Notes under the pieces: model-generated
Told to the model about the DNA's origin: nothing
Database searches by the model: none
What the model saw: only the letters and a program-made list of their open reading frames with translations
Translations under genes and position numbers: made by a program
Assembly (NCBI RefSeq): GCF_003334255.1
Contig: NZ_QOWU01000004.1
Length of the DNA: 64,000 nt
Direction: 5' to 3' (one strand)
Source of the DNA: Escherichia coli
Lineage (GTDB): Bacteria; Pseudomonadota; Gammaproteobacteria; Enterobacterales; Enterobacteriaceae
Part shown: piece by piece, positions 13,373 through 17,776 of the stretch
How positions within the stretch are numbered: the stretch's first letter is position 1
Layout of the letters: each line of letters begins with the position of its first letter

Positions 13373-14242
13373 ATGTCTGCCAAACATCCGGTCATTGCGG
13401 TAACAGGATCCAGCGGCGCGGGGACCACCACCACCAGCCTCGCGTTTCGTAAAATATTCGCGCAGTTAAATCTGCATGCAGCTGAGGTGGAAGGCGACAG
13501 TTTTCACCGTTACACCCGCCCGGAAATGGACATGGCGATCCGCAAAGCGCGCGACGCCGGGCGGCATATCAGCTACTTCGGCCCCGAGGCTAACGACTTC
13601 GGCCTGCTGGAACAAACCTTCATTGAATACGGTCAGAGCGGCAAAGGGAAATCTCGCAAATATCTGCATACCTACGACGAAGCCGTACCGTGGAATCAGG
13701 TACCGGGGACATTCACCCCCTGGCAACCTTTACCGGAACCCACTGATGTACTGTTTTATGAAGGTTTACACGGCGGCGTAGTCACGCCACAGCATAACGT
13801 TGCGCAGCATGTGGACTTACTGGTCGGCGTGGTGCCTATCGTTAACCTTGAGTGGATTCAAAAACTGATCCGCGACACCAGCGAGCGCGGGCACTCACGA
13901 GAAGCAGTGATGGACTCAGTAGTGCGTTCAATGGAAGACTATATCAACTACATCACACCGCAGTTTTCCCGCACCCATCTTAACTTCCAGCGCGTTCCCA
14001 CCGTCGACACTTCAAACCCGTTCGCGGCAAAAGGTATCCCGTCGCTCGATGAAAGCTTTGTGGTGATCCATTTTCGTAATCTGGAAGGGATCGATTTCCC
14101 CTGGCTGCTGGCGATGTTGCAAGGCTCATTCATTTCCCACATCAATACGTTAGTGGTACCGGGCGGCAAAATGGGTCTGGCAATGGAATTAATTATGCTG
14201 CCGCTGGTGCAACGATTGATGGAAGGAAAGAAAATCGAGTAA
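13373..14242 (+). CDS. prkB: Phosphoribulokinase-homologue PrkB (P-loop kinase, 289 aa)
   Basis: ORF track; N-terminal P-loop VIAVTGSSGAGTTTTS typical of PRK/uridine kinase family. Confidence 0.9.
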   Translation: MSAKHPVIAVTGSSGAGTTTTSLAFRKIFAQLNLHAAEVEGDSFHRYTRPEMDMAIRKARDAGRHISYFGPEANDFGLLEQTFIEYGQSGKGKSRKYLHTYDEAVPWNQVPGTFTPWQPLPEPTDVLFYEGLHGGVVTPQHNVAQHVDLLVGVVPIVNLEWIQKLIRDTSERGHSREAVMDSVVRSMEDYINYITPQFSRTHLNFQRVPTVDTSNPFAAKGIPSLDESFVVIHFRNLEGIDFPWLLAMLQGSFISHINTLVVPGGKMGLAMELIMLPLVQRLMEGKKIE

Positions 14243-14254
14243 CTCTGCTATTAC

Positions 14255-14276
14255 GCCGGATAAAATACTATCCGGC
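14255..14276. terminator. Hairpin between convergent prkB and yhfA (candidate bidirectional terminator)
   Basis: Inverted repeat gccggata-aaatac-tatccggc. Confidence 0.5.
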
Positions 14277-14296
14277 TTCACAACGGGATAGTTAAG

Positions 14297-14701
14297 TCAC
14301 GCGGCAACCACTTCATACGAGTGAGTAATATTCACCGCTTTTTCCAGCATCAACGCCACTGAACAATATTTCTCGGCAGAGAGATCAACCGCACGCGCAA
14401 CCGCTGCGTCTTTCAGGTCGCGACCGGTGACGATAAAATGCAGATTAATGTGCGTAAACAGGCGTGGTGCCTCTTCGCGGCGTTCAGAGGTCAATTTTAC
14501 TTCACAATCGACCACATCCTGACGCCCTTTTTGCAGGATCGAAACCACATCGATGGCACTGCAACCACCCGCCGCCATCAACACCATTTCCATCGGACTT
14601 GGTGCTTTATCGCCTGAGTTGCCGTCCATTAAAATCTGATGACCAGAGGCGGATTCGCCCAGAAAAGTTAACCCTTCGACCCACTTCACTCGCGCTTGCA
14701 T
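14297..14701 (-). CDS. yhfA: OsmC/Ohr-family protein YhfA (134 aa)
   Basis: ORF track; MQARVKWVEGLTFLGESASGHQILMDG... with paired Cys (GGCSAID ... KYCSV). Confidence 0.9.
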   Translation of the reverse strand: MQARVKWVEGLTFLGESASGHQILMDGNSGDKAPSPMEMVLMAAGGCSAIDVVSILQKGRQDVVDCEVKLTSERREEAPRLFTHINLHFIVTGRDLKDAAVARAVDLSAEKYCSVALMLEKAVNITHSYEVVAA

Positions 14702-15002
14702 TTTTGCTACTCCACTGCGTCAATTTTCCTGACAGAGTACGCGTACTAACCAAATCGCGCAACGGAAGGCGACCTGGGTCATGCTGAAGCGAGACACCAG
14801 GAGACACAAAGCGAAAGCTATGCTAAAACAGTCAGGATGCTACAGTAATACATTGATGTACTGCATGTATGCAAAGGACGTCACATTACCGTGCAGTACA
14901 GTTGATAGCCCCTTCCCAGGTAGCGGGAAGCATATTTCGGCAATCCAGAGACAGCGGCGTTATCTGGCTCTGGAGAAAGCTTATAACAGAGGATAACCGC
15001 GC
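14702..15002 (+). promoter_or_regulatory. crp promoter and long 5' leader / divergent yhfA-crp control region
   Basis: 300-bp non-coding gap ahead of crp; contains a 9-bp perfect inverted repeat TGTACTGCA (14857-14865) / TGCAGTACA (14892-14900) flanking a TCACA half-site; exact TSS not determinable by eye. Confidence 0.6.
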
Positions 15003-15635
15003 ATGGTGCTTGGCAAACCGCAAACAGACCCGACTCTCGAATGGTTCTTGTCTCATTGCCACATTCATAAGTACCCATCCAAGAGCACGCTTATTCACCA
15101 GGGTGAAAAAGCGGAAACGCTGTACTACATCGTTAAAGGCTCTGTGGCAGTGCTGATCAAAGACGAAGAGGGTAAAGAAATGATCCTCTCCTATCTGAAT
15201 CAGGGTGATTTTATTGGCGAACTGGGCCTGTTTGAAGAGGGCCAGGAACGTAGCGCATGGGTACGTGCGAAAACCGCCTGTGAAGTGGCTGAAATTTCGT
15301 ACAAAAAATTTCGCCAATTGATTCAGGTAAACCCGGACATTCTGATGCGTTTGTCTGCACAGATGGCGCGTCGTCTGCAAGTCACTTCAGAGAAAGTGGG
15401 CAACCTGGCGTTCCTCGACGTGACGGGCCGCATTGCACAGACTCTGCTGAATCTGGCAAAACAACCAGACGCTATGACTCACCCGGACGGTATGCAAATC
15501 AAAATTACCCGTCAGGAAATTGGTCAGATTGTCGGCTGTTCTCGTGAAACCGTGGGACGCATTCTGAAGATGCTGGAAGATCAGAACCTGATCTCCGCAC
15601 ACGGTAAAACCATCGTCGTTTACGGCACTCGTTAA
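15003..15635 (+). CDS. crp: cAMP receptor protein CRP (210 aa)
   Basis: ORF track; [50 protein letters not shown]...; C-terminal [23 protein letters not shown]. Confidence 0.98.
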
Positions 15636-15647
15636 TCCCGTCGGAGT

Positions 15648-15680
15648 GGCGCGTTACCTGGTAGCGCGCCATTTTGTTTC
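15648..15680 (+). terminator. Rho-independent terminator after crp
   Basis: Hairpin ggcgcgctacc/ggtagcgcgcc followed by ATTTTGTTT. Confidence 0.7.
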
Positions 15681-15685
15681 CCCCG

Positions 15686-17776
15686 ATGTGGCGCAGACTG
15701 ATTTATCACCCCGATATCAACTATGCACTTCGACAAACGCTGGTGCTATGTTTGCCCGTGGCCGTTGGGTTAATGCTTGGCGAATTACGATTCGGTCTGC
15801 TCTTCTCCCTCGTTCCTGCCTGTTGCAATATTGCGGGCCTTGATACGCCTCATAAACGTTTTTTCAAACGCTTAATCATTGGTGCGTCGCTGTTTGCCAC
15901 CTGTAGCTTGCTGACACAGCTACTACTGGCAAAAGATGTTCCCCTGCCCTTTTTGCTGACCGGATTAACGCTGGTACTTGGCGTCACTGCTGAGCTGGGG
16001 CCATTGCACGCAAAATTGCTTCCTGCATCGCTGCTCGCCGCCATTTTTACCCTCAGTTTGGCGGGATACATGCCGGTCTGGGAACCGTTGCTCATCTATG
16101 CGTTGGGCACTCTCTGGTACGGATTGTTTAACTGGTTTTGGTTCTGGATCTGGCGCGAACAACCGCTGCGCGAGTCACTAAGTCTGCTGTACCGTGAACT
16201 GGCAGATTATTGTGAAGCCAAATACAGCCTGCTTACCCAGCACACCGACCCTGAAAAAGCGCTGCCGCCGCTGCTGGTGCGCCAGCAAAAAGCGGTCGAT
16301 CTAATTACCCAGTGCTATCAGCAAATGCATATGCTTTCCGCGCAAAATAATACTGACTACAAGCGGATGCTGCGTATTTTCCAGGAGGCGCTGGATTTAC
16401 AGGAACATATTTCGGTCAGTTTGCATCAGCCGGAAGAGGTGCAAAAGCTGGTCGAGCGTAGCCATGCGGAAGAAGTTATCCGCTGGAATGCGCAAACCGT
16501 CGCCGCTCGCCTGCGCGTGCTGGCTGATGACATTCTTTACCATCGCCTGCCAACGCGTTTTACGATGGAAAAGCAAATTGGCGCACTGGAAAAAATCGCC
16601 CGCCAGCATCCGGATAATCCGGTTGGGCAATTCTGCTACTGGCATTTCAGCCGCATCGCCCGCGTGCTGCGCACCCAAAAACCGCTCTATGCCCGTGACT
16701 TACTGGCCGATAAACAGCGGCGAATGCCATTACTTCCGGCGCTGAAAAGTTATCTGTCACTAAAGTCTCCGGCGCTACGCAATGCCGGACGACTCAGTGT
16801 GATGTTAAGCGTTGCCAGCCTGATGGGCACCGCGCTGCATCTGCCGAAGTCGTACTGGATCCTGATGACGGTATTGCTGGTGACACAAAATGGCTATGGC
16901 GCAACCCGTCTGAGGATTGTGAATCGCTCCGTGGGAACCGTGGTCGGGTTAATCATTGCGGGCGTGGCGCTGCACTTTAAAATTCCCGAAGGTTACACCC
17001 TGACGTTGATGCTGATTACCACCCTCGCCAGCTACCTGATATTGCGCAAAAACTACGGCTGGGCGACGGTCGGTTTTACTATTACCGCAGTGTATACCCT
17101 GCAACTATTGTGGTTGAACGGCGAGCAATACATCCTTCCGCGTCTTATCGATACCATTATTGGTTGTTTAATTGCTTTCGGCGGTACTGTCTGGCTGTGG
17201 CCGCAGTGGCAGAGCGGGTTATTGCGTAAAAACGCCCATGATGCTTTAGAAGCCTATCAGGAAGCGATTCGCTTGATTCTTAGCGAGGATCCGCAACCTA
17301 CGCCACTGGCCTGGCAGCGAATGCGGGTAAATCAGGCACATAACACTCTGTATAACTCATTGAATCAGGCGATGCAGGAACCGGCGTTTAACAGCCATTA
17401 TCTGGCAGATATGAAACTGTGGGTAACGCACAGCCAGTTTATTGTTGAGCATATTAATGCCATGACCACGCTGGCGCGGGAACACCGGGCATTGCCACCT
17501 GAACTGGCACAAGAGTATTTACAGTCTTGTGAAATCGCCATTCAGCGTTGTCAGCAGCGACTGGAGTATGACGAACCGGGTAGTTCTGGCGATGCCAATA
17601 TCATGGATGCGCCGGAGATGCAGCCGCACGAAGGCGCGGCAGGTACGCTGGAGCAGCATTTACAGCGGGTTATTGGTCATCTGAACACCATGCACACCAT
17701 TTCGTCGATGGCATGGCGTCAGCGACCGCATCACGGGATTTGGCTGAGTCGCAAGTTGCGGGATTCGAAGGCGTAA
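15686..17776 (+). CDS. yhfK: Putative efflux-type inner-membrane transporter YhfK (~696 aa; ORF could begin at TTG 15674)
   Basis: ORF track 15674..17776; ATG at 15686 gives MWRRLIYHPDINYALRQTLVL...; many hydrophobic segments in both halves. Confidence 0.85.
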   Translation: MWRRLIYHPDINYALRQTLVLCLPVAVGLMLGELRFGLLFSLVPACCNIAGLDTPHKRFFKRLIIGASLFATCSLLTQLLLAKDVPLPFLLTGLTLVLGVTAELGPLHAKLLPASLLAAIFTLSLAGYMPVWEPLLIYALGTLWYGLFNWFWFWIWREQPLRESLSLLYRELADYCEAKYSLLTQHTDPEKALPPLLVRQQKAVDLITQCYQQMHMLSAQNNTDYKRMLRIFQEALDLQEHISVSLHQPEEVQKLVERSHAEEVIRWNAQTVAARLRVLADDILYHRLPTRFTMEKQIGALEKIARQHPDNPVGQFCYWHFSRIARVLRTQKPLYARDLLADKQRRMPLLPALKSYLSLKSPALRNAGRLSVMLSVASLMGTALHLPKSYWILMTVLLVTQNGYGATRLRIVNRSVGTVVGLIIAGVALHFKIPEGYTLTLMLITTLASYLILRKNYGWATVGFTITAVYTLQLLWLNGEQYILPRLIDTIIGCLIAFGGTVWLWPQWQSGLLRKNAHDALEAYQEAIRLILSEDPQPTPLAWQRMRVNQAHNTLYNSLNQAMQEPAFNSHYLADMKLWVTHSQFIVEHINAMTTLAREHRALPPELAQEYLQSCEIAIQRCQQRLEYDEPGSSGDANIMDAPEMQPHEGAAGTLEQHLQRVIGHLNTMHTISSMAWRQRPHHGIWLSRKLRDSKA

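Follow-up and report, generated by a model that had tools for sequence, protein, structure and literature searches.

crp encodes the master regulator of catabolite repression, and a previously undescribed control element in its leader would therefore matter. Its expression is autoregulated by cAMP-CRP via an operator, site I, and an overlapping divergent promoter (PMC3050693, PMC3950509 and PMC9600491). Site I has been placed some 40 bp downstream of the crp transcription start (PMC3050693). PMC9600491, citing Hanamura and Aiba (1991) and Okamoto and Freundlich (1986), states that CRP bound at site I activates the divergent promoter, that this promoter is now known to express yhfA, and that its transcription begins on the opposite strand, 3 nt upstream of the crp start. 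In the mechanism given in the literature, cAMP-CRP at site I represses the crp P1 promoter by way of RNA polymerase being recruited to the overlapping divergent yhfA promoter. No CRP autoregulation was found in Yersinia (PMC3050693). The crp 5′ UTR is 167 nt long (PMC3950509) and mediates a PNPase effect (PMC9927094).

Here we examine a perfect inverted repeat, TGTACTGCA-N26-TGCAGTACA, within the 301-bp intergenic region between yhfA and crp in Escherichia coli. The closest described system is site I itself (Aiba, 1983; Okamoto and Freundlich, 1986; Hanamura and Aiba, 1991). The repeat resembles it in that the core in its spacer is centred at +41.5 and the divergent start lies 3 nt upstream of the crp start, and differs from it in that the 9-bp arms fall outside the 22-bp site, the dyad is shifted by 1 bp and the arms are not conserved. 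Like the structured 5′ UTR hairpins of enterobacterial mRNAs, the repeat is transcribed, appears as a stem-loop in the predicted E. coli fold and occupies the zone that in other genera holds a hairpin, A′; unlike them, its sense-strand stability is not beyond that of shuffled sequence. In the crp leader, A′, B and C carry compensatory changes between genera, whereas the repeat stem is confined to Escherichia. Intrinsic terminators and cruciform-forming inverted repeats share with it a perfect inverted repeat, but its 26-nt spacer, short arms, lack of a U-tract and weak hairpin energy set it apart. No terminator-like site was found on either strand of 14680–15020, and there is no U-tract.

The functional element at this locus is CRP site I with its divergent promoter, and the locus is already known. 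For the repeat itself, we favour with moderate confidence the reading that it is a by-product or a minor leader hairpin and not an independent regulatory unit. As the functional element is an operator described decades ago, and the repeat is recent and limited to one genus, follow-up effort can be saved.

The repeat and the operator in its spacer

The window, that is, the whole stretch of 64,000 nt that was analysed, is E. coli DNA. A 401-bp query around the repeat matched 5426 of 5426 complete E. coli genomes, where the repeat falls between the annotated genes yhfA (OsmC family) and crp. Window positions equal genome positions in U00096.3 minus 3,471,117, which converts the published crp P1 start at 3,485,953 (PMC9600491) to 14836. 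The features of the region are as follows.

14297–14701, minus strand: yhfA (OsmC family), the divergent neighbour, from the ORF list and genome matches
14833, minus strand: divergent (yhfA) transcription start, computed from the crp start as 3 nt upstream
14836, plus strand: crp P1 transcription start, placed at the ATG minus 167
14836–15114, minus strand: Ascrp, a published RNase III-sensitive antisense RNA (U00096.3 3,486,231 to 3,485,953; PMC9600491)
14857–14865: left arm, TGTACTGCA, +22 to +30 of the crp leader
14857–14900, plus strand: predicted leader-RNA hairpin of 9 bp plus two pairs (14866–14891 and 14867–14890), with the CRP-site sequence and GGA in the loop
14867–14888: CRP site I 22-mer inside the repeat spacer, core TGCAA-N6-TCACA at 14870–14885
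14892–14900: right arm, TGCAGTACA, +57 to +65 of the crp leader, Escherichia-specific
14912–14930, plus strand: leader hairpin B (CUUCCC...GGGAAG), from the RNAalifold consensus, 93% of cells paired, outside the repeat
14944–14974, plus strand: leader hairpin C (CCAGAGACAG...CUGGCUCUGG), from RNAalifold, outside the repeat
15003–15635, plus strand: crp coding sequence, from the ORF list and genome matches

The initial annotation of this DNA had reported a perfect 9-bp inverted repeat about 100–145 bp upstream of the crp start codon. Both arms are present, are 100% complementary and enclose a 26-nt spacer containing GTCACA, and they lie 103–146 bp from the ATG at 15003. The DNA repeat does not extend past these arms, its flanks being ...TTGA on the left and GTTG on the right. 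Ascrp spans the entire crp leader, so both strands of the repeat are transcribed (PMC9600491). In dinucleotide shuffles of the 64 kb, 11.7 ± 3.4 centres of perfect inverted repeats with arms of at least 9 bp and a spacer of at most 50 were expected per window, against 23 in the real window, where the excess consists mainly of longer, terminator-like stems. When the 301-bp intergenic region was shuffled, 3.5% of the copies contained at least one such repeat. The repeat is therefore real yet statistically weak, and only mildly unusual by itself.

The spacer contains the core TGCAAAGGACGTCACA at 14870–14885, which has two mismatches to TGTGA-N6-TCACA. Matches of this quality number 31 in the window against 25.6 expected, so that the core match by itself is not diagnostic. 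We take the spacer sequence to be that of the published site I. Its CRP-like dyad at 14877.5 lies at +41.5 from the crp start at 14836 and, with site I described about 40 bp downstream of that start, the repeat brackets the known autoregulatory operator. The expectation in the initial annotation that this region carries crp autoregulation and a divergent promoter agrees with the 167-nt leader, the position of site I and the divergent start (PMC3950509; PMC3050693; PMC9600491). A consensus promoter scan of 14680–15020 returned no sites and thus no independent support for the promoters. Across 27 species, the CRP 22-mer has a mean column identity of 90% compared with a leader mean of 80%, and nothing else in this part of the leader is as well conserved. 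We found no open paper in which the sequences of the arms or of the site are printed.

Within the CRP site, A-GGA at 14875–14878, the centre of its N6, is invariant or nearly so in the 27 species, as it is in Salmonella and Klebsiella. For a CRP spacer it is unusual that these bases exceed the TCACA half-site in conservation. A further conserved block, at 14768–14800, lies upstream of crp P1 and includes GGCGA-N6-TCATG centred at 14775.5 (−60.5), a position that would fit CRP site II. The motif is followed by GCTGAAGCGAGACACC, which resembles a Cra half-site, and Cra binding upstream of crp has been reported (PMC5888115).

It had also been proposed that the repeat marks a site for a dimeric protein. 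This holds for the spacer, where the CRP site is found, and not for the arms themselves, which are outside the CRP recognition site: they begin 4 and 6 bp beyond the core pentamers, are centred 1 bp away from the CRP dyad, and lack one partner in Klebsiella and Salmonella. The arms would have a role at the DNA level if the repeat were an extended palindromic site, in which they act as outer CRP half-sites or bind a second dimeric or tetrameric factor, such as Fis, straddling site I. The nearly symmetrical bracketing of the CRP site by the repeat would suit such a site, as would the Cra binding upstream of crp mentioned above and the binding of Fis at the crp promoter, reportedly described by Gonzalez-Gil in 1998. 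We nevertheless consider an extended site very improbable. The repeat dyad (14878.5) and the CRP dyad (14877.5) do not coincide, and each arm starts 13.5 bp out from the repeat centre, beyond the 22-bp CRP site. A distance of 35 bp separates the half-site centres; this is about 3.3 helical turns and hence does not place them on one helix face. Two extra bases (alignment columns 78–79) in Citrobacter and most other genera make the spacing differ, the right arm is not conserved (58%), and the left arm is without a partner in Klebsiella and Salmonella. We know of no transcription-factor motif that the arms match. The 1-bp distance between the repeat centre and the CRP dyad would rarely be expected from chance, and this closeness speaks against the by-product reading.

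Conservation of the arms and of neighbouring hairpins

The comparison drew on 80 crp loci, each from a different GTDB species. The leader was alignable solely within Enterobacteriaceae proper (27 sequences), and outgroup leaders of Salmonella and Klebsiella were added via their YhfA proteins; that of Yersinia was not alignable. The co-conservation of the arms across species, on which the initial annotation had staked its proposal, did not hold. Both exact arms were found in the window E. coli and in Escherichia albertii only, among the 80 crp loci; column identity over the 27 leaders averaged 72% in the left arm and 58% in the right, neither reaching the leader mean of 80%. The spacer also varies in length, as nearly all non-Escherichia species, including Citrobacter, carry the two extra bases of columns 78–79 between the CRP site and the right arm. 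The right arm of L004, a close relative labelled E. coli, reads TGCAGTTCA. In the 27-leader alignment, the Escherichia sequences form 9, 9 and 8 Watson-Crick pairs in register. Two Citrobacter species, Enterobacter cloacae and Kluyvera form 7, and the rest form 6 or fewer, falling to 0–2 in Cedecea and Mangrovibacter. Judged from the aligned leaders, the perfect repeat is a derived state of the Escherichia lineage.

The left arm is part of a conserved block, GTACTGCATGTATGCA, that adjoins the CRP site. Klebsiella quasipneumoniae carries the exact E. coli left arm, TGTACTGCA, without the right arm, and Salmonella has CGTACTGCA at the left-arm position, likewise without the right arm; CGTACTGCA is also found in Citrobacter and Kluyvera. 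The partnerless left arms of Klebsiella and Salmonella indicate that left-arm sequence is retained without a pairing partner. We propose a history in which the left arm, part of the conserved block next to the operator and partnerless in other genera, was joined by a young, Escherichia-specific right arm that would have arisen as an ancestral A′ decayed through a 2-nt deletion and several substitutions.

A GenBank record of 5.87 Mb labelled E. coli (CP092804.1; L097) has a yhfA–crp intergenic region essentially identical to that of K. quasipneumoniae (L099). This record is probably mislabelled.

In most other genera, the bases at the right-arm position pair downstream, with a probability near 1, into hairpin A′ (GGCYG...CRGCC), which occupies columns 77–102 of alignment A1 at non-Escherichia loci and reads GGCTAC...GTAGCC in Salmonella. 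A′ covaries, with UA in 13 and CG in 6 sequences at one pair, and 77% of its cells are paired. Escherichia lacks it as a result of two deletions, of 2 nt and 1 nt, and a C-to-T change. Two Escherichia substitutions, C to T at 14857 and G to A at 14874, either make for a better repeat stem or eliminate a mini-hairpin that competes with it. Hairpin C (CCAGAG...CUCUGG) is located just upstream of the Shine-Dalgarno sequence, and 7 of its 11 pairs are changed on both sides. Together, A′, B and C are conserved hairpins of the Enterobacteriaceae crp 5′ UTR with compensatory changes and match no Rfam family; an Rfam scan of 14200–15700 at E ≤ 10 gave no match on the leader. These hairpins could explain reported effects of the crp 5′ UTR, for example that involving PNPase, and are the more useful by-product of the analysis.

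Folding of the leader and of its antisense RNA

The initial annotation had raised the possibility of an RNA stem, and such a stem is predicted in E. coli. It is present in the minimum-energy fold of the leader, with a helix pair probability of 0.97, and is lengthened to 11 bp by two further pairs, U-G and G-C, beyond the 9-bp arms. The fold is ordinary on the sense strand of E. coli: the hairpin has a local energy of −15.2 kcal/mol and a z-score of −1.0, and the z-score of the entire leader is −0.5. Pair probability of the repeat helix is 0.98 in E. albertii, drops to 0.63 in L004, in which the arm mismatch is uncompensated, and is about 0 in the 24 other species.

The predicted apical loop of the repeat hairpin in E. 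coli leaves GGA (14876–14878) unpaired, in the manner of a CsrA-type GGA motif.

The RNAalifold consensus of the 27 leaders lacks the repeat stem and recovers two downstream hairpins. Within the same alignment, 65% of the cells of the repeat stem are paired, compared with 57% in column shuffles, and its covariation is 0.222 compared with 0.150, a value reached by 0 of 500 shuffles; both scores are inflated by sequence kinship and by the derivation of the structure from one of the aligned sequences, as the tool warns. The outer pairs swap UA for CG (7:5) and AU for UA (7:7). This mild excess of pairing over shuffles counts against the by-product reading but is within what relatedness can produce. 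The modelled per-species pair probabilities argue against a shared stem, and we found no compensatory pairing of the repeat stem across species, with at most 7 pairs outside Escherichia and a probability of about 0 in 24 species.

On the minus strand, the segment 14852–14905, which is inside Ascrp, folds in E. coli into a hairpin of 17 pairs (−17.1 kcal/mol, z = −3.1). The antisense fold is the stronger one because the CRP half-sites, using G-U wobble, also pair within the repeat stem. Its unusual stability is a further point against the by-product reading. The corresponding z-score is −1.65 in E. albertii and between −1.8 and +1.6 in other genera, so that the strong signal is limited to the E. 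coli allele, and the value of −3.1 is one extreme among about 58 species-by-strand tests.

From these predicted folds, the repeat probably forms a hairpin in both the crp leader and Ascrp. As a side effect of the history proposed above, the arms would pair in the crossing transcripts, that is, in crp mRNA (+22 to +65) and in antisense Ascrp, and the predicted outcome would be a lineage-specific hairpin with operator sequence in its loop. Any effect of this hairpin on mRNA folding or stability would probably be small and not conserved. Nothing in these comparisons and folds shows that the repeat hairpin is needed.

One alternative is a functional, Escherichia-specific RNA hairpin. It supposes that selection swapped A′ for the repeat stem, thereby showing the operator and GGA in the loop, and that the hairpin acts post-transcriptionally; it might, for instance, bind CsrA, determine sensitivity to PNPase or RNase III, or influence the form of the crp/Ascrp duplex. 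CsrA reportedly binds the crp leader, a finding attributed to Pannuri in 2016. The E. coli helix, with its probability of 0.97 and its place in the minimum-energy fold, is consistent with this alternative, as is a GGA that is invariant or nearly so and unpaired in the loop, but the sense-strand z-score is −1.0 and the uncompensated mismatch of L004 lowers the probability to 0.63. About 8 of the 22 Escherichia-specific changes in the leader fall in or near the segment and strengthen the stem, remove the competing mini-hairpin or destroy A′, although this directional reading of the substitutions is post hoc. The hairpin that most other genera have in the same zone suggests that some structure is wanted there; conservation of the repeat stem, however, ends at the genus. 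The PNPase effect via the crp 5′ UTR (PMC9927094) and the RNase III sensitivity of Ascrp (PMC9600491) also point towards a functional hairpin. So does the antisense z-score of −3.1, subject to the number of tests among which it is the extreme. Weighing these points, we regard a functional hairpin as unlikely, though to be taken seriously. More doubtful still is the specific scenario in which the Escherichia crp leader was remodelled, with the loss of A′, such that the repeat hairpin, through its loop of operator and GGA and the 17-bp hairpin of Ascrp, would add a genus-specific layer of CsrA, PNPase or RNase III control. Our preferred reading thus remains that of a by-product or minor leader hairpin.

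Cruciforms are extruded most readily from repeats with long arms and very short loops. The present repeat, which the initial annotation had suggested could form a cruciform, has 9-bp arms and a 26-nt loop, and as a single-strand DNA hairpin it reaches −7.5 kcal/mol with a z-score of −0.9. Extrusion under negative supercoiling, modulating the overlapping promoters, would gain plausibility from the position of a perfect inverted repeat in a divergently transcribed, and hence supercoiling-prone, region (PMC9600491), but the repeat is not conserved. Considering its geometry and energy, we judge a cruciform here to be extremely improbable.

An open reading frame running from an ATG at 14856 for 47 codons and ending in the crp Shine-Dalgarno region (part of ORF 14781–14996) was considered as a uORF and rejected, because it lacks an upstream Shine-Dalgarno sequence and indels of 1–2 nt in other genera break the frame.

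Variation within Escherichia coli

Over 52 bp around the repeat, 4341 genomes match the window exactly and 1052 (about 19%; 1052 of 5393 complete genomes) show a single mismatch. Every sampled case with one mismatch, comprising three genomes as well as independent contigs, carries T14881C, which turns TCACA of CRP site I into CCACA. T14881C is linked to C14851T, and neither lies within an arm. It represents a natural variant of the autoregulatory operator, and its carriers include an APEC O2:K1:H4 strain. C14890A is a rare variant. The arms are invariant in the sampled E. coli alleles, to which little weight attaches as the region is at least 99% identical among them and 32 divergent genomes fall outside the sample.

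Two strains carry larger changes. Strain CUPS04 (L096; NZ_CP180694.1) has an 8-bp deletion (TGCTACAG) at 14838–14845 (+3 to +10), in the overlapping core of the crp and divergent promoters. In strain E7476 (L084; NZ_CP035817.1), an IS3-family insertion is found after 14886, just past the CRP site, and this element splits crp from its promoter and site I.

The 32 divergent genomes, out of 5426 complete E. coli genomes, are only 80–90% identical to the window over the first 100 nt of the leader (14836–14935). This allele is further from the window than E. albertii is, and is still further from Salmonella (60–80%). An insertion of 21–25 nt in the CRP site was considered as its explanation and refuted by two flank searches, whose results are equally at odds with an inverted spacer between the arms. 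An exact look-up of the CRP protein returned just the two common E. coli alleles, and the members of the YhfA cluster included no divergent Escherichia allele. One copy of the yhfA–crp region is reported on a record typed as a plasmid.
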